From assembly GCA_014238055.1 (NCBI GenBank), contig JABABV010000001.1:184938-248937 (forward strand): a stretch of 64,000 nucleotides of DNA, given 5' to 3'. Source of the DNA: Mycoplasmatales bacterium. GTDB lineage: Bacteria; Bacillota_I; Bacilli_A; Mycoplasmatales; JABABV01. A program made the translations under genes and the position numbers. Positions 29,434-42,366 of the stretch are shown here, one piece after another (within the stretch, counting starts at the first letter, position 1; every line of letters begins with the position of its first letter). The notes under the pieces were generated by a model, which did no database searches, was not told the origin of the DNA, and saw only the letters and a program-made list of their open reading frames with translations.

Positions 29434-30534
29434 TTATTCTCAAACTATATTTTTCTCGTCGTTTTCGTTTCTTTTCGTGAATTTTGTAACCATAATAATT
29501 CCGATAACCATAACTGTAATTAGTAGTCAAAATCATCAATGTAAATTATAATCTGAATCGCCACCAAGACTTTTTAACAATCCTAATTTAGCAAATATAT
29601 ATTGTAATAAAGCTGTTGATATAATTAAACTATTATAAAATGCTGAGGCAATTCCAGAACCGACTACTCGCACTGAATTATAGAAAAATATTCTACCAAT
29701 AAACATTATTGCTCCAACGAAAAATATAGAGATTAAAAATTTTCAATTAGAAAAGAACTCGCCATATCAATTGAAAGCTTGTGAAATCGATACTGGTGTA
29801 AATAACGTTGCAATAACAATAACTATTGGAGCAGCGATTGCTCCTGATAAAACTTTTAAATTAACAATTGCACTAGTGTTTAATTTCGTAGTAGAATTAC
29901 GCACTGCAATATCGATCAAGATATTTTCTATACTTCAACATAAAGGCGCAATTGAAGCTAAGACAATACCAATAATTAACATATTCCTGTTTGTACTTGT
30001 AGCATCGCTATTAATAATAGCAACAGTCCCAATCGTTGCGGCTGAAGCAATTGTTAGTAAAACACCAATTCATCCTTTTCAATTAATATGGTCTTTAAAA
30101 ACAAGGACCGCCCCAATCATCGTAAAGATTGGCATTCAAGAACTAAAAGTTGAACCGTATGCTGGTGTCGTAAATAAAATTCCTAGCGTTAGAAACGTAT
30201 AGCCAAATGGCCCAGAAATAATTCCACCAATTATAATTAATAATCCTCAACGATTTTTTAATAAACTTGATATTTCAGAAAAATAAGTTTTTATTTTACC
30301 TCTAACCAAGGCAATTAAAATTGAAGTTATCGTATTGAAGAATTCTTTTAAAGCAACTAGAACGAATCCTCAAATAACAATATTATAATTATTATTATTT
30401 AAAGGTCATTTAATAGATCCTTTATTAAATGCTAAAACTGCAATCAATATTGGAAATAAACCATAAAATAAAGAACAACTCATCCCCGATATAATTCCTT
30501 CAGTTTTTTTATTAACTTTTAAATTTAAATTCAT
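29434..30534 (-). CDS. DMT-superfamily (EamA-like) transporter (366 aa)
   Basis: GGAG before ATG 30534. About ten hydrophobic segments in two halves. Open only in code 4. Family call by architecture only. Confidence 0.5.
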
Positions 30535-31182: not shown

Positions 31183-31211
31183 ATAATCAACTCCTAATTA
31201 TTTTATATTTT

Positions 31212-32219
31212 TCATTCTATAACTGTTTTAAATTCATTTTTAAGATCTTTGGAAAAAGCCTCGGAGACGTCTTTCAAAGATTCGGTAACAATGATTTCAT
31301 CTATTAAGTTTTTACTTAATTCACTGAATTCTTTATTTTTCATTAAATTAATAATAGCTTTGAAATCATCATAACCACTACGAGACCTACCTATAATAGT
31401 AATCCCTTTTTCTAATAAATCACGATATTTAAAATTAAAATCACTATCGCTGATTCCTAAAAGAATAATTGTACCTTCAGGAATCAATAATTTAATAGCT
31501 TCAATTACAATATTGTTTTGCTGACTTCCGCCAACACACTCAAAAACAAAATTATAATTATTATTATCTTTATCAGTTGGTTTAGTATTAAATTTATTTT
31601 CAATATGTTGAAAACGCTTTAACTTAGAATCATGTTTTCCAAATAACGAAATTTCTGCATCAGGTAATAAAAACTTAATAATCAAACTAGTTGAAAAAGC
31701 AATCGGCCCATCACCAATAATAGCAACTTTAGGTTTTTTGATTTTTTGAGCTTTTTCTAAAATAGCATTTATACCATGATGCGCCACTGATAAAGTTTCA
31801 CACATTACTAAACTTTCTCTATCGATATCATTAGCTTTAATTAATCGATTACTATCCATATCAATAAATTCTTGCATAAAACCATCAAATCCAGAACCTC
31901 TAAATTTACCTTGAACATAGTTTTCGGCAAAATCATTACATAAATAATCTGGCGTATTAGGTACCATAATAACTTGATCACCGATTTTAAATTTATTACT
32001 ACTATCAAAAACAACTTCTCCAATTGCTTCATGAATCAAAGCCATTGGTAACTTTTTGTTTAAAATTTCTTGATCTCGATTACCTAAAAAATAACGTTGA
32101 TCAGCTTTACAAATAGCTAATAATTTTGGTCTTACGATCACTTTATCATTTAATTTAATATCTCGATACGTTTCAATAAATTGGAATGGTTCGATTAATT
32201 GATATACTTTATTAATCAT
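31212..32219 (-). CDS. tarJ: Ribulose-5-phosphate reductase (ribitol-5-phosphate 2-dehydrogenase), TarJ
   Basis: MINKVYQLIEPFQFIE...ICKADQRYFLGNRDQEILNKKLPMALIHEAIGEVVFDS...MVPNTP...GFDGFMQEF closely tracks S. aureus TarJ as I remember it. The ATG at 32219 overlaps the tarI stop; two further in-frame ATGs lie upstream (32225, 32231). Confidence 0.8.
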   Translation of the reverse strand: MINKVYQLIEPFQFIETYRDIKLNDKVIVRPKLLAICKADQRYFLGNRDQEILNKKLPMALIHEAIGEVVFDSSNKFKIGDQVIMVPNTPDYLCNDFAENYVQGKFRGSGFDGFMQEFIDMDSNRLIKANDIDRESLVMCETLSVAHHGINAILEKAQKIKKPKVAIIGDGPIAFSTSLIIKFLLPDAEISLFGKHDSKLKRFQHIENKFNTKPTDKDNNNYNFVFECVGGSQQNNIVIEAIKLLIPEGTIILLGISDSDFNFKYRDLLEKGITIIGRSRSGYDDFKAIINLMKNKEFSELSKNLIDEIIVTESLKDVSEAFSKDLKNEFKTVIE

Positions 32220-32925
32220 CCTCATTACCAATTTCTACTATCGCTCGCGCTAATCTTAAATCGTAAGGAGTAGTTATTTTTATATTAGATTTTTTTCCAT
32301 AAATTAAATGAATTTTTTTACCAAAATGAGAAAACAATCCACAAGCATCAGTGAAATTATCGCCTTCTACTTTATTATATAATTTTTTGAATTCAGATGA
32401 ATTAAAACTTTGCGGTGTTACTCCTTGTAACATTTTTTTACGTTCAGGAATACTAGTAATTACTTTACCATCTTCACTAAAAACAATCGTATTGTCAGAA
32501 GTTACGACTGTATCTAATATTTCGTGTTTTGATATTAGATCAACATGTTTTTGAATTGTTTCATAAGATACAAAAGGTCTAACTGAATCATGAGTGATTA
32601 AATTAAAATCTTTTGTTTTTAATAATTTTTCTGAAAAATCAATTGAATTTAAAATTGTTTTATTTCTATTGATTCCTCCTTCACAAACAAAAATAGTTTT
32701 ATCTATTTTACCCGGGAAATTATTTTTTATTTCTTCAATAACATAGTTTTTTCATTTTTTATGACTTGCTATTACAATCGCATCAATATTTTTTACAAAT
32801 AAAAATCTTGAAACAGTATGAATGAAAATATCTTTATTGGCTATTTTTAAAAATTGTTTAGGTTTATCGATGTTTCCCATTCTATTTCCGACACCACCTG
32901 CTAATATGACAGCTATATTTTTCAT
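32212..32925 (-). CDS. tarI: D-ribitol-5-phosphate cytidylyltransferase (IspD/TarI family)
   Basis: AAGGAG before ATG 32925. MKNIAVILAGGVGNRMG...KPKQFL, THDSVRPF. Translationally coupled to tarJ. Confidence 0.8.
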
Positions 32926-32942
32926 AGTAAACTCCTTTTTAA

Positions 32943-34949
32943 TTAAATTAATTTTTCGACATATATATCTTTAATTTTCATGATTGGTTTTAACAAATTA
33001 GTTTGAGTGCTATAACTATTAAATTTCATTATTAATGTTATATTCCAACTTTTTAATTTATTCACTTCGTCTAAATCAAGATTATTATTTTTCATATCTT
33101 TAATAATTGGTTGCGCTTTTTTTCATGATCCGAATTTATTATTATTAGTTCATCACGCAGAATAAGAATTTAAAAAATAACCTTTATTTACAAAATTCTG
33201 CATTAAAAATAATTCTCTATCTGCAAGTAAAATCATATCATTATTAGTTACATAATTGTTTAATGAATTAAAATCTCGATTAAAATAAGTTTTTCCAGAA
33301 TTATTTGTGTTATTAATTAAAACCCCTTCACCTAAATTATATTTTATCGATGCGCATTTTGCATAAATTGATATTGAACTAGCTGAAAAAATTACCAAAG
33401 GAACGAAAGCAAGCGTTCCGTAATTAATTTTTTTATTAATTTGAATAAATTTAACATCTTTAAGACTCATCATAATTATAAAAATAGCGAAAAAATTACT
33501 AGATATAATATATATTCTATAAGAAGAATCAGATAATATTTGATAAAATATAATTCAAAAACAAGGATTATAAACAGTAAAAACTAATCAAGTATAATAA
33601 TGAAATTTTTTAGTTTTGATAGTTTGATATATTACTAACGTTCATAAAACTACAAATAAGATAGCTAAATCTATATTAAATAAACCTGCTTTTCCGTTTA
33701 GATATAAACTTAAATTTGATCAAGCTAATTTATCAATTAGAGTTTCAATTTTATAATTAGGGTATTTCTCATTAAAAATATTTCAATGATTATTAATTAC
33801 CATAAAAACTAAAGACATCAAAGATATTGATAAAATAGTTATAATTATTTGTTTGTTTGTGACTTTATTAATTATTTTATTTAAAAAATCCACTATTTTA
33901 GTTTTATATATTAGAATAATCATAATCGTTAATATTGATATTTCAACTAAAGTCATTATTATATTTGGAGTTGAAAACTTTATCATAGTCATAAATATAA
34001 ATAAAAAAACAATAATAGATAATAGTTCTTTGTTAATTTTTTTATTATAAACAACAATTAATATAACAAATAATAATTCAGGAAATATAACATAAGAAGA
34101 AACCACAGAATTAGCAATAGCAAATATGAGTAAATATAAATTACTAATTTTAGAATCTATTTTGTAAATAAAAATAATAAAAAATAATAATAAACTACCT
34201 AATGCAAAAGATAAATCTGTTCCTCTAACGCTTCATTTTAAAAAATAATTTTGCATAAAAGTTAAAACTATAGCTAAAAATATAAATATTAATATATTTC
34301 AATTTCATCTACTACTACCATAAATATAAATTAAATATATTAATATCATAGAAAATGTAAATATTAATATTGAGTTCATCATTAAAGTAGAATAGATTAA
34401 ACTTCCAGAAGCCATTTTGAAGACACTGATTATTAAATAATAACTTTCATTTAAATAATAAGAACTGACATCGTGATTATTTCACGAAAAACTCGTATTA
34501 ATATTAATGTGCTTAAATCAAGAATTAGATTTAACTAAATCTAAATAATAACGATTATCAAAATTAAAATTTTTAACTGGTTGAAAATTAAAAATAATTA
34601 AAATCAATAAAAATAAACTTCATATGATTAAATCTACTTTTACGTTATTTCAATTAAGAATTATTTTTTTATTAATTATTTTTATAATAAATAAAAACCA
34701 AGTAATAAAAATAAATAATGCCAAAATGATGAATCAAACAATAAAATCTAAAACGAATATAAATGGTAATAGATTAGCGATGAAAGATAAAAATAATAAA
34801 GTGATGAAAGCGGCGCAAAATCTGATTATTGATTTAGTAAACCTACTATCTTCTCCGTCTTTAGAAATCTTTATAATATTTATAGGAATTAAATAAAATA
34901 ATGGAATTTCTACTAATAATAATATTAAAAATATAATTATCGGTGTCAT
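32943..34949 (-). CDS. Large polytopic membrane protein (668 aa), candidate polymerase / GT-C-type transferase / ligase
   Basis: Three track fragments share one frame. More than 12 hydrophobic helices, then a roughly 150-aa hydrophilic C-terminal domain. The ATG overlaps the HAD stop (TAATG). No family motif recognised by eye. Confidence 0.6.
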
Positions 34950-35785
34950 TAATTATCATCTTCTTTTAATAAATTCTTATTAATTCAACTAGCAACCCCA
35001 TTATCTTTATGTCCAAGTGTGCTTTCTGAAGCAATTACTTTTAAAGTTTCACTAGCGTTTTTCATACTCACCGATACTCCCACTACATTAAACATGCTTT
35101 CATCATTCATAGAATCACCAATTGCAGCAGTTTGATCTAATTTAATATTTAATTTATCACAAAGAAATTTAACTCCATTACCTTTAGAAGTTTTTTTTCC
35201 AGTGATTTCAATAACTCAACCATTTCCAGATGTAGCAATTTCTAAATGCGGAAATTTAGCATCTAACTCTTTTTTCAATAGTTTAACAATTTTACGTTTA
35301 CGACCAGTAAACATAATTTTAAAATATGATTGGTCTTTAATTTTATCTAAAAAATATTCTTTATGTAAAATAGCATCCATTTTTGATCACTTAACATAAA
35401 GTTTAGTTAATAAATTAGTGCCATAAAACTCAAATGGTTCATCTACTTTAATAGAAAAATTATGATTAACAGCATATTTAATAATTTCATTAACATCTTT
35501 TTTCTCTATTTTTTTATTATAAAGACTTTTCTTTTTAGAGATATCTTCTATATGCGCACCATTAAAAGAAACGAAATAATTTCCAAAATTATTAACTCTT
35601 ATTTTTTCTTGAATCTTTCGACAACTATTAGTTCCTCTACCACTATTTACAATAACATAAATACCTTGTTCTTGCGCCGCTTTACAAGCTGCTAAATTTT
35701 CTGGACTAATATAATGTCTTTGATGACGTTTTCCGTTAACTAAAGTTCCATCTAAATCTAAAAAAATCGCTTTTATTTGATGCAT
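34949..35785 (-). CDS. HAD-IIB (Cof-type) phosphatase
   Basis: IKAIFLDLDGTL (DxD nucleophile), SGR, GDSMND motifs. Confidence 0.8.
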
Positions 35786-35787
35786 AA

Positions 35788-36783
35788 TTATTTTTCTCCA
35801 ATACTATTTTTATTTTGTTTTGGACTTACTTGTTTACATACTATCTTTATCAATCTTTTTCTTGGAACTAAAAACGTTATAAGACTAATAAATCATGGTT
35901 TACAACTCATAATTAAAAAACGATTCTTAAAAACTTTATTAATTATTTTTTTATTATATTTTGATTTAATGTATTGCTTTAATGTTTTATAACTATCATT
36001 TCTTAATTTACGATCACTAATTAATTTAATATCGATTAATTTAGGACACACAAATCTAAATAATAATATTTGAAATTGTTCTTCAGTAGTGATGTTTTCC
36101 AAAAATTTATTTACAGTAATAGCTTCTAATTGTTGGCCTTTAAAAGTTCTACTGACACTACCTTCGTTTATATTCGTTAAAATAAAAGGTTCATCTATAT
36201 ATAATATTTTAATATTATCTTGACAAATCTGCGTCAAAATCGCAACATCTTCATCATAACTAACATTTAAATCAGCTGTTATTTTTTTTGATAACGCTTT
36301 TTTAAAAATACAATTAACCATTGATAATGAATTTTTAAGTAAAAAGTTATAATCGATTTCAAAACTATTTTTGCTTGATTTATTTTTTATTTTTTTGTTA
36401 CCAGAAAAAGAAAAGCTTCCCATGTCGTAATCGTTATCTATAATCAAACTTAAATTATTTGCTAAATTTTTAAAATAATAAGAATCATCAATATCTAAAA
36501 AACAAATATATTTTCCAGATGCTTGATTTATCCCAAAAAGACGAATATGATAAAGATCATTATTTAATATTTCTACTGCTTTTATTTTTGATAATATTTT
36601 ATTATCTTCAATAATTTCAATTGGAAATTTATAATCTTTATTTTTAACTAATAAAATTTCATATTCAAAATTAGAAAAATTTTTAGCTATTTCTAATATT
36701 AAATTTTTAATATTATCTTCAAATTTTACTTTATGATAAGGTAATACAAAACTAATAATTTGTTGTTTGTTGTTTGTATTCAT
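35788..36783 (-). CDS. GT2-family glycosyltransferase (331 aa)
   Basis: ISFVLPYHK... N-terminus and GKYICFLDIDD (DxD). The track stop at 35893 is a TGA; the true TAA is at 35790-35788, 2 nt before the HAD ATG. Confidence 0.75.
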
Positions 36784-36901: not shown

Positions 36902-37213
36902 TTATTTATGATTATTAATTATATCTCTAATTGCTGGTTCTGGTCTAAATCCTGAAAAACGTTCAACTTCTTTTCCGTTTTTTAAGATAACCATAGTAGG
37001 CACAGATTTAATATCATATTCTTGTGCATATTCTTGGTCTTGATCAACATCGATTTTAATTATTTTAGCTCCTAAATTTGTATCAGTTGCTAATTTATCT
37101 AAAATTGGTGCAATCATTTTACAAGGTCCACATCAAGTTGCAAAGAAATCCACTAACACTAATTCTGTATCGTTAATAATTTCTAAAGCTTCTTTTTTAC
37201 TAATTGCTTTCAT
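36902..37213 (-). CDS. trxA: Thioredoxin
   Basis: MKAISKKEALEII...VDFFATWCGPCKMIAP. The active-site Trp is encoded by TGA. Confidence 0.9.
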
Positions 37214-37258: not shown

Positions 37259-38155
37259 TTACTTTTTAAAAGATAAATTTTGCTTTAATTCTTTTTTAAG
37301 TTTTAACATTTCGTTTTTATCATTAAAATAATCGAGATAAGATTTATCGTTCTTAAATAAAACAAAATGTTGGTTTTGATAAACTTTATTTTTTGGTATA
37401 TCCATTACGTCATCGCCATATTTATTAATTAAAAAATCGATACTATTTTTTAAAATTGGAAATTTTTGTTTTTCAAAAGTTTGTAAAATTATTTTTGATT
37501 CAATAATTTTTTTAGAAAAACTAACTTTTGGAAATTCTAGCGGATCAACTAGACATCCATAACGATAATTATCTTGTAATTTATTTCATTTAGAAAATCT
37601 ATGGTCCATTAATTTAGCAAATCATTTATTTGGCATTAAATTAAGAAATAATTTTAAACTAAAATATCCTGGTGCTATTAATAACTTTAATCAAAAATTA
37701 AAATTATGGAAACTCAATCGTTTAAAACGAACATATAATAATATATTTCAAAAACTATATAATTTTAAAAGTAATTTTCTTTTTTTGGTAGGGAACTTAT
37801 CGATTGGAAAAATATCGATAAACAAACCATGAGCTCACTTAGCTTTTTCACTTCAAGTTTCAATTACAGTCGTACTATTATCTTCTCATTTCATAAAGAA
37901 ATTGTCGTTTCCAGACATAAAAGCTTTTTTAATACAAAATGGTTTAGGTACGTCTTTAATCAATAGCTCTAATTTACGATAATTATCTCTATCCATACAA
38001 ATATCAATATCATCATCTCAAGGAACGAATCCTTGATGACGTAACGCTCCGATTAAACTACCATAACCTAAAAAATATTTAATATTATTTTCATTGCAAA
38101 ATTTATCAAATGCAATTAAATTTTTCTTTAATTCTTCATGTAATAATTTAATCAT
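37259..38155 (-). CDS. LicD-family phosphotransferase, paralogue 1 (298 aa)
   Basis: [28 protein letters not shown] is the LicD signature ([20 protein letters not shown]). Confidence 0.8.
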
Positions 38156-38166
38156 AAATCAATTCC

Positions 38167-39024
38167 TTATTTAGATAAAGTTATGCTTTCGCCGTTTTTC
38201 ATTTGGCAAATATAATTTTTTCCGATTGATTTAATTTCATCAAATTCTTCCGGAGCTAGTCCTGTTTTTTTAACAGCATAAATTAATGCTTTTGTTTCAG
38301 CATCTTGATTATATTTTTTATATTTCGGATCTAAACGTTTTAAATCATCTAAATTATCAACATCAAAAATAGAATTCTTTTTAACTAAATGACAATATAT
38401 TTTTATTTTTGGTTTTTCGCTTTTTAAATCATTGATAATGATATCTTCAAAATATCAATCGTTCATATCGATGCTTTTACGATATTTTTTTAATGATTTT
38501 CTAATTTTTTTATAAGTATCTTGACCAATAAAAGTAACTTCTCTTTGAGCGATTATATTAACGCCTCCAGATTTTTTAATTTTAGTAATCTGTTGTGTTT
38601 TTTGATTAACAGTTAGAGTTCATTCATTTGAAACACCATTAATTTTTTCACCATACATTAAAGTGTGTGGAAACTCTTGTTCAAAAATATTTTCTTTAAG
38701 AATAGTATCCCCGTTAACAATTAAAGCGTTTTTTAATTTATTTTTAGCGAAATATAACGTTCCAATATTATTGCAATGTCTTCAATTAAAATTATATTTT
38801 ATTTTTACTTTAAATTTTGATTTTAAATATTTAAATTTTTTATGTTTATAACCCGTTAAAATAGTTATTTTTTTAATGCCTTTTTCTTTAAGTTTTTTAA
38901 TAATATCTTCAATAATGATCGTTCCGTTTATATCTATTAATGGTTTTGCAGTTTCTTTTGTAACTGGTAGTAAACGCATACCTCGTCCAGCAGCTAATAT
39001 TAATGCTCTTTTAACTTTATACAT
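38167..39024 (-). CDS. LicC-like nucleotidyl (cytidylyl) transferase for a phospho-alcohol (285 aa)
   Basis: GGAG before ATG 39024. KRALILAAGRGMRLLPVTKETAKPLIDING, the sugar/phospho-alcohol nucleotidyltransferase N-terminus. The longer METIKNY... start in the track overlaps LicD2 and has no SD. Confidence 0.7.
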
Positions 39025-39028
39025 ATTA

Positions 39029-39805
39029 TTATGATTTCTCCTTCTTATTTTTAAAAAAATGATGTCCTCTACGATTTTTAAATGACGGTAATTCTTTATA
39101 GTCTCCAAAATAATTAATTAATATTTCATCATATTTATTATAAACGTAATATTCTCTATCTTCAAATTTTACTAGTTTAACTTTTGAAAATCATTCTCTG
39201 TCGAACATTTTAGATTGATGTTTTTTGAAAGCATAAGGATCAGAAGGGAAATAAAAATGAGTATAATTATCTTCTTTTTTAGATATTATATTTTCAATAT
39301 TATTAGCAATTTTCTTATAGAACATATTGCTAATAAATTTAAATTTATGATCACTTAAATTTCAGTAAAAAGCCATTTTTCTAAAATTTTTATTAACTTT
39401 TTTTAAACTTAAAGGTGCTGGTGAAATAACAAATATATCAACAAATATTGAAGTTTTAAAATTAAAATCATTTGTTTTTAAAAATATTTTATTAATTGCT
39501 TTATTCCATATTTTATTTTTATAATCAAAAATCAATAACTCTTTATTATATTCTTGATTAATAATATTTTTAAACTTTAAATAATTTTCCATCGTCATCA
39601 CAATATCTAAGTCATCATCTCAAGGAATAAACCCTTTATGACGAACTGCACCTAACATAGTTCCTCAAAATAATGAATATTCAATATTATGTTTAATACA
39701 AATATTATGAATTTTATCTGTAATGTTAAGTAATTTTTTTTGAACATTAATTAATTGATCAATTTCTTGACCATTCATATTAATATCTATATTTTTATAC
39801 AACAT
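39029..39805 (-). CDS. LicD-family phosphotransferase, paralogue 2 (258 aa)
   Basis: [28 protein letters not shown]. Confidence 0.8.
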
Positions 39806-39838: not shown

Positions 39839-40720
39839 TTAATAATTATGTGTTCTTTTTCTTTCTTGTAAAGGTGGCAAAGTTTTGTAATCATAGTCTT
39901 CTATTTTGCATTTCCCTTTAGAATAAGCATGCTTTATTACTCAATCATAATCTTTCATAATTAATAATTTATAATTTTCAAATTTAATATCAATAACATC
40001 ATTAAACATTGATTTTTTAATTGTATTTAATTCATAATTAAATTTTAATTTATATGCAAACGGTGATGTTGGCATATAATACCTATCACTTTTGTATTTT
40101 TTATAAATGACTTTATTAACACTTCTAATAACGAACTTTATAGGCACCAAAAAGATAAATGGTTTTAAAAATCAAAATAACATTTTTTTCTTAAAACTGC
40201 CAATTTGTTTATTTACATTAGGAATCAATTTTAAAGATATAGTTCATAAAATTTTTGTTTTTAAAATATTATATCGAGCTTTAAAATTACTTTTAGGCGC
40301 TGTAACTACTACAACTATATCTACTGATGCATTAGTTTCTAGAGCGCAATTAGGATAATCATTATTTTTAAACCCTTTTTTTGAAAACTCTATTTTAACT
40401 AATGATCTAGCAAAAGTTTTACTATTTCAATCAAATATTTTTATTCTATTATCGTTTTTTAATTCTATTATTTTTTTTAATTTTAAATAATTTTCTAAAG
40501 TCATGGCAATATCCATATCGTCATCTCAAGGAATGAATCCTTGATGTCTAGCGGCACCAATCATACTACCTCAAATTAATGAATATTTAATATTATTTTC
40601 AATCATAATATCGTGTAGCATTTTAATAAATTCTAAAAAATTATTTTGTAATTTACTAAGTTCTTTAATTTCTGATTTAGAAATATTTACTTCTACACCT
40701 TTATATATATTACTTAACAT
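39839..40720 (-). CDS. LicD-family phosphotransferase, paralogue 3 (293 aa)
   Basis: [28 protein letters not shown]. The ATG lies 11 nt inside the end of the upstream PLP-enzyme gene. Confidence 0.8.
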
Positions 40721-41825
40721 TTTTCTCAGATTCTTTATTTAAAAAAGCTTTTATCCCAGAAATTAATATTTGATTTTGTTTGTGATTACCAATAGTTAAC
40801 CTTAAACCAATAGTTCTAACATTTCTAATACAAATAGAATAATTTACTAATAAGAACATTCTTAATTCATGATTTTCTCATTTTTCTTCTTTTGTTATTA
40901 AAAATATATAGTTACCTTGACTCTTAATAAAATTAAGATTTAATTTTGCAAATTCATTATATAAATATTCTTTTTCTGATATTGCTTTAGCTTTCATATC
41001 ACTATATCATTGACGATCATTTATAGCTGCGGTAGCGGCGTAAATTGCATATTTATTAGTAGATAATGGTTGGTATGTTTTTTTCATTGCATCTATTAAA
41101 TATTTTGAAGATAAAGCGTAACCTATACGAAATCCACTTAAACCGAAAAATTTTGAAAAAGTATGTAATATTAAAATATTATCATGCGTTTTTATTAGTT
41201 CGCTAGTTTTGTAAGGGAAATCGTTAGCATTAGCAAATTCGCAATATGCTTCATCAATAACTAATAAGATGTTTTTGGGAACTTTTTCAACAAAATCATA
41301 TAATTCTTTTTGATTTATATAAGTTCCTGTTGGCATATTTGGATTTGTTATATAAATAATTTTTGTATTACTATTAATAGCATTTAAAATACTATTTAAA
41401 TCATAATTATAATCTTCTAACTGTTTAATAATATTCACTTTATTTCCAGTAATTTTTGCAGTATTAGCATGTCTTCCATAAGTTAAATCAGTAACGATGA
41501 CTTCATCTTTTTCATCTAAAAAAACTCTTGGGATCAAATCTATTATTGCATCACTACCATTAGCAATCATGATATTATCATTATTAACATTTCAATATTT
41601 TGAAATTGAATCTAAAAGTTTTTTAGGTTTCATATCTGGATATATAAACCCCTTAATATCATTTTTAACTTTAATTCATTCATTAACTTTTGGAGAACAG
41701 CCAAATAAATTTTCATTATAATTCATTTTAATAATTCTTTTTATATTATGTTTTTTTTCTAATTCATTCATTGAAGGTATGTTGTGATCTGTTAAATTAA
41801 TAATTTCTTTTTTAATTTTTATCAT
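40710..41825 (-). CDS. Class I/II PLP-dependent enzyme, HisC / CobD (aminotransferase or phospho-amino-acid decarboxylase) family (371 aa)
   Basis: MNYNENLFGCSP (HisC/CobD N-terminal motif), ITNPNMPTG, and HTFSKFFGLSGFRIGYA with the PLP lysine. First gene of the LicD operon. Confidence 0.75.
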
Positions 41826-42028: not shown

Positions 42029-42113
42029 TGGTGCGCGAGAAGGGAATCGAACCCCCACGTCGTAAGACACTAGATCCTAAGTCTAGCGCGTCTGCCAGTT
42101 CCGCCACTCGCGC
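42029..42113 (-). tRNA. tRNA-Leu (UAG)
   Basis: Reverse complement GCGCGAG...CTCGCGC-A-CCA, anticodon loop CTTAGGA, long variable arm. Confidence 0.9.
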
Positions 42114-42273: not shown

Positions 42274-42289
42274 GGATAAGTTTGTATAA

Positions 42290-42365
42290 TGGTGGATTAA
42301 TTCAGGATTTTCACCTGTTCTATTAATTCTTGTAACATTAATAGATCTTTAACAAGATAATCCAT
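42290..42365 (-). pseudogene. tRNA-sized, CCA-ending tRNA-like element (degenerate)
   Basis: Reverse complement GGATTAT...TTAATCC-A-CCA (6 of 7 acceptor pairs). No D-arm. Perfect 9-bp stem TCTATTAAT/ATTAATAGA with 9-nt loop GTTACAAGA. T-arm CAGG-TGAAAAT-CCTG lacks the TTC motif. Confidence 0.4.
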
Positions 42366-42366
42366 A

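Follow-up and report, generated by a model that had tools for sequence, protein, structure and literature searches.

Gene 40710..41825, on the minus strand of the 64,000-nucleotide stretch of the Mycoplasmatales contig JABABV010000001.1 that was analysed here (the window), raises the question of what an enzyme resembling both histidinol-phosphate aminotransferase (HisC) and threonine-phosphate decarboxylase (CobD) could do at the head of an operon coding for LicD-type phosphotransferases and a LicC-like cytidylyltransferase. The original prediction held that neither canonical role fits a Mollicute, and that the pyridoxal 5'-phosphate (PLP) enzyme makes a phospho-amino-alcohol, which the LicC-like enzyme activates and a LicD transfers. 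As judged from the sequence, the gene product represents a new, narrowly distributed and Mollicute-restricted subfamily, derived from HisC and coupled to LicC-type activation; the gene is to be filed neither as HisC nor as CobD. Sequencing runs containing the source organism comprise marine metagenomes and runs that bear a single host label, and none of the RNA runs contained the stretch.

The open reading frame encodes a protein of 371 residues and is full length under genetic code 4 only, as it contains four in-frame TGA codons read as Trp (W50, W78, W273, and W316). Pfam placed the protein in Aminotran_1_2 (E = 1.2e-55), and it is predicted to be a fold-type I, class I/II PLP enzyme of the HisC fold. 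The best curated NCBIfam model was hisC TIGR01141 with 261.8 bits, below its cut-off of 276.55 bits, and the CobD model TIGR01140 gave 175.4 bits, also below its cut-off (290.55 bits). A phmmer search of the PDB returned HisC of Listeria (3ffh, 8e-46) and Campylobacter (3get, 2e-43) on top, with much weaker matches to the decarboxylases, i.e., serine-phosphate decarboxylase 6oux (3e-15), 3fkd (8e-15), and CobD 1lc5 (4e-13). The family profile gave 233 bits for HisC in the PDB and 78–107 bits for 1lc5, 3fkd, and 6oux. An AlphaFold2 model built from the family alignment (mean predicted local distance difference test score 86.3) retrieved the HisC structures 3ffh and 3get first in Foldseek, with template modelling scores of 0.86–0.92, and CobD at rank 38. 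Of the proposed HisC/CobD membership, the HisC-like part was clearly borne out and the CobD-like part was not. Both motifs that had been read in the sequence were present, namely, the amino-terminal YNENLFGCSP at residues 36–45 (NEN..G.SP) and TFSK (S224, K225), in which K225 aligned with the PLP lysine K214 of Escherichia coli HisC.

Close relatives of the protein were found to be rare. Among 5.8 billion clustered proteins they formed 13 clusters with 39–82% identity, all placeable members of which were Mollicutes, and ordinary HisC followed at ≤37% identity. A profile search of 1.84 billion representatives recovered three 50%-identity clusters at 451–576 bits, the next match being at 297 bits. 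When genome contigs were searched with the clade alignment, the matches listed were ordinary HisC loci, with no Mollicute among them, and these loci were used as the outgroup. In the maximum-likelihood tree, the 13 members were monophyletic (support 100/99), their stem measured 0.57 substitutions per site, and they were separate from the genuine HisC of Mycoplasmatales. The clade is thus a Mollicute-restricted offshoot of HisC.

The substrate pocket was compared in an alignment of E. coli HisC, 107 canonical HisC relatives, and the 13 clade members. Across the clade, the PLP-binding residues were all retained, as were the two carboxy-terminal Arg residues; in the protein studied here, K225, D191, Y194, and R233 correspond to E. 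coli K214, D184, Y187, and R222, and the two anion-binding residues R334 and R342 to R322 and R335. The lid Tyr (E. coli Y20), found in 105 of the 107 relatives, was lost in all 13 members. The Asn of the NPTG motif, present in 107/107 relatives, was replaced by Met in every member (M164, signature NPNMPTG), and the position of E. coli M112 carried Arg (R118) in 13/13 members and in 2/107 relatives. E86 was replaced by Ala in 11 members and by Ser or Phe in the remaining two, the Ser/Ala preceding N-E-N ('SNEN') was an invariant Tyr (Y36, 13/13), and the Pro ahead of the conserved Pro-Phe was Gln in 12/13. In the histidinol-phosphate aminotransferase (HspAT) of Mycobacterium tuberculosis, the corresponding residues Tyr25, Tyr127, and Met129 contact the imidazole and the amino group, while Asn176 and two Arg residues hold the substrate phosphate, the Asn-Pro pair being described as conserved in the subfamily (PMC4703992). 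As the catalytic machinery and the anion site were kept and the pocket was changed, it appears that the part of the enzyme that reads the side chain was rebuilt. HisC (subfamily I-beta; 3ffh, 3get, 1fg3/1gew, 4r8d) is thus similar in fold, length, PLP residues, and the two phosphate-holding Arg residues, and is the best match by sequence, profile, and structure; it differs in having a his pathway, the lid Tyr, the NPTG Asn, and E86, in carrying Met/Gln at the position in the imidazole pocket where Arg is invariant here, and in gene context, which is a glycoconjugate or LicC context here. NPNMPTG and the absence of the lid Tyr are shared by another HisC-like protein, of low-complexity, AT-rich character, from the representative library (P0375, 361 residues); this protein carries Ser rather than Arg at position 112, scores with ordinary HisC, and may represent a second, independent Asn-to-Met lineage.

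The claim that neither canonical role fits was checked against the genome itself, the assembly of which is 845 kb in size and 96.7% complete. A tblastn search of this assembly with Mycoplasmatales HisD, HisB, and HisH/A matched only gene 40710–41825. CbiB (PF03186) gave no match in this genome, with control genomes positive, and phosphoenolpyruvate (PEP) mutase (PF13714) was absent from it. The lack of HisD/HisB/HisHA, CbiB, and PEP mutase excludes the canonical roles for this genome; the cobamide reading was rejected as there is no CbiB, and the phosphonate reading as there is no PEP mutase. The premise that Mollicutes lack histidine biosynthesis held for this genome and failed for the order as a whole. 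One Mycoplasmatales genus (L091 = G343:C36, L092, L093) harbors adjacent hisD, a hisC-hisB (IGPD) fusion of 554 residues, and a hisH/hisA-like open reading frame, which contradicts the common assumption that Mollicutes are devoid of the pathway. The genuine HisC of this genus shows ∼30% identity to the 371-residue protein and lies elsewhere in the tree. A lone canonical HisC fragment with the PFN motif is present on a 517-bp contig of the assembly (C50); it is 36–51% identical to Firmicute HisC, closer than to the clade, and is probably a binning contaminant since no other his genes occur in the assembly.

The genomic neighborhood of the clade was read in eight independent gene contexts. In Mycoplasma marinum (L002), the aminotransferase gene overlaps a LicC-like gene of 230 codons by 11 nucleotides, and the corresponding overlap in three uncultured mycoplasmas amounts to 1 (L004), 14 (L102), and 14 nucleotides (L103). 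The two genes abut in the genomes G368 and G383, and in the genus of the source organism one LicD gene is placed between them within one operon. The lineages outside this genus that carry the pair show ∼40% identity to the protein studied here; of six contexts counted outside the genus, five have the LicC-like gene overlapping or immediately following that of the aminotransferase. The surroundings of the pair are variable and include LicD, a TagF-like glycerophosphotransferase, glycosyltransferases of families 2 (GT2) and 1 (GT1), a phosphohexomutase-flippase fusion, HAD phosphatases, and thioredoxin, the thioredoxin gene also adjoining the pair in L001, L004, and L102. No LicD is present within ∼8–10 kb of the pair in L004 and L102. 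In the contexts read (own genus, L002, L004, and L102–L104), the aminotransferase was never found in a his operon. In M. marinum, the region following the pair (L002:11841-17011) encodes two large proteins (685 and 542 residues) without a family match, a TagF-like CDP-glycerol glycerophosphotransferase, a LicD, and a GT1 enzyme; the arrangement resembles a locus for a polymer of the teichoic-acid-like kind, here in a bacterium that has no wall.

When 399 genomes of Mycoplasmatales were surveyed, six contained the clade, namely, G368, G383, and four from the own genus; all six also carry the adjacent LicC subclade, and a LicC-like gene of any kind is present in 45/399. Conversely, the LicC proteins closest to the own one are exactly the neighbors of the aminotransferase and one protein in G367. 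In the LicC tree, the aminotransferase-linked proteins grouped with moderate support (87/63), and the own genus was divided from the other carriers just as in the aminotransferase tree. No orthology to a generic aminotransferase of Mollicutes devoid of LicC/LicD genes was found. It is highly probable that the product of the aminotransferase is the substrate of the LicC-like enzyme.

The organization of the locus in the window is as follows (features in the order of transcription).

42001-41983 and 41959-41930, minus strand: two terminator-like hairpins that close the tRNA cluster lying upstream, the tRNA-Leu of which ends at 42029
41891-41883, minus strand: predicted promoter-like extended −10 element TGaTATAAT (consensus match only)
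41837-41831, minus strand: ribosome-binding site GAAAGGA, read from the sequence, ahead of the ATG at 41825
40710..41825, minus strand: HisC-derived PLP enzyme, 371 residues; signature M164 (NPNMPTG), R118, and Y36, lid Tyr lost, PLP Lys K225
39839..40720, minus strand: LicD-family phosphotransferase 'LicD3' (PF04991, 8e-25)
39029..39805, minus strand: LicD-family phosphotransferase 'LicD2' (PF04991, 1e-30)
38167..39024, minus strand: LicC-like cytidylyltransferase, 285 residues from ATG 39024; sole LicC homologue in the genome, of the aminotransferase-linked 'NGD' subclade
37259..38155, minus strand: LicD-family phosphotransferase 'LicD1' (PF04991, 3e-34)
36902..37213, minus strand: thioredoxin gene trxA, the last gene of the unit
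36891-36870, minus strand: terminator-like hairpin after trxA, end of operon 1
35788-36783, minus strand: GT2 glycosyltransferase, first gene of a co-directional downstream (second) unit, 31203..36783
34949-35785, minus strand: Cof-type HAD phosphatase, second unit
32943-34949, minus strand: polytopic membrane protein of 668 residues, second unit
32212-32925, minus strand: TarI-like ribitol-5-phosphate cytidylyltransferase, second unit
31203-32231, minus strand: TarJ-like reductase, second unit

The first unit thus comprises six genes in the order aminotransferase, LicD, LicD, LicC-like, LicD, and trxA. The hairpins upstream, followed by the −10 element and the ribosome-binding site, place gene 40710–41825 at the head of the transcription unit, as had been claimed, and the terminator after trxA closes it. 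The reported overlap of 11 nucleotides between its 3' end and the LicD3 start was confirmed at 40710–40720. The second unit, the gene order of which was also found in context L001, is probably the acceptor-building and second head-group part of one glycoconjugate locus. An EamA-family transporter of 366 residues (29434-30534, minus strand) lies directly downstream of the TarJ-like gene; the LicB choline permeases belong to the EamA family, and the transporter may import choline or another head-group precursor. In the upstream cluster, ARAGORN identified six tRNAs, with a gap of 93 nucleotides (42274-42366) between tRNA-Thr and tRNA-Val.

The LicC-like partner showed its best PDB match to LicC of Streptococcus pneumoniae (1jyk, 5e-30) over the whole length, and the second-best match was the nucleotidyltransferase/aminotransferase fusion of Treponema denticola (6pd1). 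No kinase gene is present in the unit, so both the LicC-like assignment and the absence of a kinase from the operon agree with what had been described. The most likely start of the gene is the ATG at 39024, in agreement with its orthologues, and not the TTG at 39108. Its product has 285 residues in the own genus as against 224–230 in the other aminotransferase-linked orthologues; an extra carboxy-terminal tail of ∼55 residues (window 38167-38330) had no family match. Of the residues forming the choline aromatic box of S. pneumoniae LicC, W136 and Y190 are kept, and D105 is changed to Asn, W191 to Phe, and D192 to Glu. The acidic pocket positions D105 and D192 distinguish LicC from PntC (PMC6697681). 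The use of these residues to tell choline from primary amines was dropped, as position 192 is Glu throughout the LicC-like proteins of Mollicutes, even in the kinase fusions, for which choline is the presumed substrate, and the pocket residues therefore do not discriminate. The LicD proteins matched the model of the Mycoplasmopsis fermentans cholinephosphotransferase Mf1 weakly, with 77–90 bits, far under the equivalog cut-off of 225 bits. Beyond the window, the genome encodes a fourth LicD paralogue (contig C120:18701-19585), which shows 43% identity to LicD3. An isolated choline-kinase-like open reading frame of 253 residues (C76:130645-131406) is located on the same contig, ∼92 kb from gene 40710–41825 and ∼54 kb before the window start; its match to Pfam Choline_kinase was weak (31.5 bits), and it is conserved across the own genus and absent from G368, where the pair is present and no choline-kinase homologue was found.

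From the observed fold and family of the enzyme, its remodelled pocket, the missing histidine, cobamide, and phosphonate pathways, and the conserved gene pairing, we infer, with somewhat better than even confidence, a transaminase converting dihydroxyacetone phosphate (DHAP) to serinol phosphate, followed by CDP-serinol formation and LicD transfer; here the substrate, the product, the nucleotide, and the acceptor are the inferred terms. The enzyme would be a neofunctionalized HisC-type PLP transaminase that has lost imidazole recognition and kept the site for a phosphate ester beside the reacting carbon. The keto substrate of HisC, imidazole-acetol phosphate, differs from DHAP in having an imidazolyl group where DHAP has the C3 hydroxyl. 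An enzyme that lost imidazole recognition and kept the phosphate-binding Arg residues would therefore be pre-adapted to aminate DHAP, a metabolite present in abundance in glycolytic Mollicutes. DHAP is proposed on account of this abundance and because the locus has no linked gene for another supplier. In the first step, the enzyme would aminate DHAP with glutamate to serinol phosphate (2-amino-1,3-propanediol phosphate); in the second, the LicC-like enzyme would convert serinol phosphate and CTP to CDP-serinol; and in the third, one of the three LicD proteins would react CDP-serinol with a membrane glycolipid or lipoglycan, giving the serinol-phosphate-bearing acceptor and CMP. The acceptor would be built by the products of the adjacent GT2, membrane-protein, and TarIJ genes, and the remaining LicD paralogues together with TarIJ would add further head groups, i.e., ribitol phosphate and possibly phosphocholine.

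A parallel arrangement was found in other Mollicutes, in which many LicC-like genes are fusions. LicC::choline kinase fusions of ∼540 residues (Pfam Choline_kinase, APH) occur in Mycoplasmopsis (L121:1471-3090, L124, L125) and in M. caviae (P0452). Fusions of LicC to a class-V, AGXT-type aminotransferase, with ∼605 residues (Aminotran_5, 4e-26), occur in Mycoplasmopsis contexts L112–L118, L127, and L128; the carriers, by their NCBI names, are M. adleri, M. felifaucium, M. phocirhinis, M. caviae, M. gallinarum, M. lipofaciens, M. iguanae, and M. fermentans, of which M. caviae has both fusion types. These class-V fusions often adjoin orthologues of Mf1, which is of the LicD type, and in architecture they correspond to PntC-AEPT of T. 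denticola. In M. fermentans, the class-V fusion (L135:7001-8815) follows cdsA, and the protein P0127 of this species (604 residues) aligned with T. denticola PntC-AEPT 6pd1 over residues 4–531 (2.5e-30). PEP mutase was found in 0/12 class-V-fusion genomes. It looks as if the protein attached to LicC in Mollicutes is a supplier of the phospho-substrate, be it a kinase, a class-V aminotransferase, or a HisC-derived aminotransferase. The original prediction of a chain from PLP enzyme through LicC-like enzyme to LicD is supported comparatively by the remodelled clade, the conserved pairing and six-of-six LicC co-occurrence, the absent canonical pathways, and the class-V/LicC fusions without PEP mutase.

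The major lipid of M. fermentans, MfGL-II, is 6'-O-(3''-phosphocholine-2''-amino-1''-phospho-1'',3''-propanediol)-alpha-D-glucopyranosyl-diacylglycerol and is probably identical to GGPL-III (PMC3403081). It follows from this structure that the lipid contains serinol phosphate. The cholinephosphotransferase mf1 is the sole biosynthetic gene named for it in the literature searched (PMC3403081, PMC11982090), in which no mention of CDP-serinol was found. A homologous aminotransferase as the direct link to M. fermentans was rejected, as the Mf1-bearing genus lacks the HisC-like clade, and for this reason the class-V fusion was considered instead. By analogy, the class-V fusions are candidate CDP-serinol synthases for MfGL-II/GGPL-III. 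As an extension, held with somewhat less than even confidence, Mollicutes may reach CDP-serinol by two unrelated routes converging on a LicC-type enzyme, one HisC-derived with Met for the NPTG Asn (in the present organism and its marine or uncultured relatives) and the other through the class-V fusion (in Mycoplasmopsis, M. fermentans included).

Several observations weigh against the serinol phosphate route. The HisC NPTG Asn helps to hold the substrate phosphate and the PLP O3', and, on the residue comparison, its replacement by Met is not what a simple change from imidazole-acetol phosphate to DHAP would predict; the invariant Arg118 could bind a second anionic group instead. Since the own genus has a choline-kinase-like open reading frame, phosphocholine might be a further substrate of the single LicC-like enzyme, or might take the place of serinol phosphate as its substrate, and the choline-pocket residues do not discriminate among the Mollicute LicC-like proteins. 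The pairing has its exceptions: on the short contig L104 the aminotransferase is followed by GT2 and GT1 genes with no LicC, and in G367 (77% complete) a LicC gene of the linked subclade follows trxB without an aminotransferase. As to the M. fermentans parallel, the aminotransferase concerned is non-homologous and its function is itself a prediction, and M. fermentans was not confirmed among the 12 genomes searched for PEP mutase. The Asn-to-Met change and Arg118 therefore leave room for a phospho-amino-acid decarboxylase or for a transaminase of another keto-phosphate.

In the first of these alternatives, the enzyme would be a CobD-type decarboxylase that yields phosphoethanolamine from O-phospho-L-serine, or aminopropanol phosphate from O-phospho-L-threonine; CDP-ethanolamine would then be formed by the LicC-like enzyme, and LicD would add phosphoethanolamine to a glycoconjugate. 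Phosphoethanolamine is a common bacterial surface decoration, the invariant Arg118 could hold the carboxylate, and the loss of the universal Asn and the lid Tyr signals an altered reaction or substrate geometry. Decarboxylation of phospho-amino acids by a HisC-like fold is known from CobD, SMUL_1544 (6oux), and Cj1436 (PMC11800397). Against this stand the similarity to HisC, far above that to any solved decarboxylase in both profile score and Foldseek rank, and the lack of a phosphoserine source linked to the locus, where serine biosynthesis genes were not searched for. Salmonella enterica CobD keeps the NPTG Asn, and Asn-to-Met would then be no signature of a decarboxylase. The decarboxylase is considered rather unlikely.

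A transaminase acting on another phospho- or phosphono-carbonyl compound, with its product still passed on to the LicC-like enzyme, is likewise given a small chance only. Candidate conversions are 3-phosphohydroxypyruvate to phosphoserine, amination of a ketose-1-phosphate or -bisphosphate, and scavenged phosphonoacetaldehyde to 2-aminoethylphosphonate (AEP). Any phospho(no)-amine product would satisfy the pairing with LicC, a second anionic group would be well matched by the invariant Arg118, which lies where the imidazole pocket used to be, and PntC-AEPT of T. denticola, the closest characterized aminotransferase-LicC architecture, uses a phosphonate (PMC6697681). However, without PEP mutase there is no endogenous phosphonate in this genome, neither phosphoglycerate dehydrogenase nor another supplying enzyme is located in the locus, and CDP-serine or CDP-aminosugar-alcohol donors for LicD have no precedent in the literature searched. 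DHAP is the only such keto-phosphate known to be made in bulk by every glycolytic Mollicute.

A general amino-acid aminotransferase of the aromatic, Asp, or Ala type, serving nitrogen metabolism in a coincidental LicC/LicD neighborhood, is improbable. The HisC-family aromatic aminotransferase (ArAT) of M. tuberculosis (4r2n) does take aromatic amino acids (PMC4703992), the loss of the polar lid Tyr resembles a lost specificity for histidinol phosphate, and two contexts (L004, L102) have no LicD near the pair. However, lineages of only ∼40% identity have conserved the overlap that couples the gene to that of the LicC-like enzyme in translation, the gene occurs in so few genomes and each time with the linked LicC subclade, and the pocket gains Arg and Gln, unlike the hydrophobic pocket of ArAT. 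A residual genuine histidinol-phosphate aminotransferase is scarcely credible: although the TIGR01141 score is only 15 bits under the trusted cut-off, one Mycoplasmatales genus has his genes, and the assembly contains the 517-bp canonical HisC fragment, the genome lacks HisD, HisB, and HisH/A at 96.7% completeness, the imidazole- and phosphate-contact residues are replaced in all clade members, and the gene is never in a his operon and lies apart from Mycoplasmatales HisC in the tree.

The DHAP-to-serinol phosphate reaction proposed here has a counterpart in C. jejuni (Campylobacter jejuni), in which the PLP enzyme Cj1437 converts DHAP to (S)-serinol phosphate for a surface glycan and its partner Cj1436 is an L-serine-phosphate decarboxylase (PMC11800397). 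The likeness, a small amino-alcohol phosphate made from a central metabolite, is one of the proposed reaction. No PDB entry was found for Cj1437, Cj1436, or RtxA. The two systems differ downstream, as the C. jejuni product is amide-linked to glucuronate by an ATP-grasp-type ligase and then dephosphorylated, with no nucleotide activation and no LicD. In the Pnt pathway of T. denticola, the small phospho(no)-amine produced by an aminotransferase undergoes activation by a LicC-type cytidylyltransferase, after which a LicD-type enzyme places it on the cell surface (PMC6697681). PntC-AEPT (Tde1415, 6pd1/6pd2) thus shares the aminotransferase/LicC-type/LicD logic with the present locus, where the aminotransferase gene is coupled or adjacent to that of the LicC-like enzyme; its aminotransferase is of class V and fused, whereas the present one is of the HisC type (class I/II) and separate, and its phosphonate arises from PEP mutase, which is absent here. 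The LicA/LicC/LicD1/LicD2 and TarI/TarJ system of S. pneumoniae, which serves teichoic-acid phosphocholine, is similar in that a LicC homologue, several LicD proteins, and TarI/TarJ are found in one locus, and differs in that here there is no LicA kinase in the operon, a transaminase would act as the supplier of the phospho-substrate, and there is no cell wall. The logic leading from an aminotransferase through a LicC-type nucleotidyltransferase to LicD is already known, and the HisC-derived subfamily as its putative supplier is what is new.

If the serinol phosphate route is true, CDP-serinol would join choline, ethanolamine, glycerol, ribitol, and AEP among the CDP-activated head groups placed by LicD/TagF-type enzymes, and candidate genes would be at hand for the serinol phosphate of MfGL-II/GGPL-III, for which none has been named in the literature searched. 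Serinol-phosphate glycolipids would be predicted in wall-less marine bacteria, and the TagF-like enzyme encoded after the pair in M. marinum would predict polymers of the poly(serinol phosphate) type. The Asn-to-Met exchange, at a position invariant in all canonical relatives compared, is of enzymological interest in itself. The subfamily would be a case of pathway recruitment, in which an enzyme of histidine biosynthesis persists where the pathway has been lost, with a diagnostic rewrite of the active site, and the NPNMPTG plus Arg118 signature would end the naming of the genes of this clade as 'histidinol-phosphate transaminase'.

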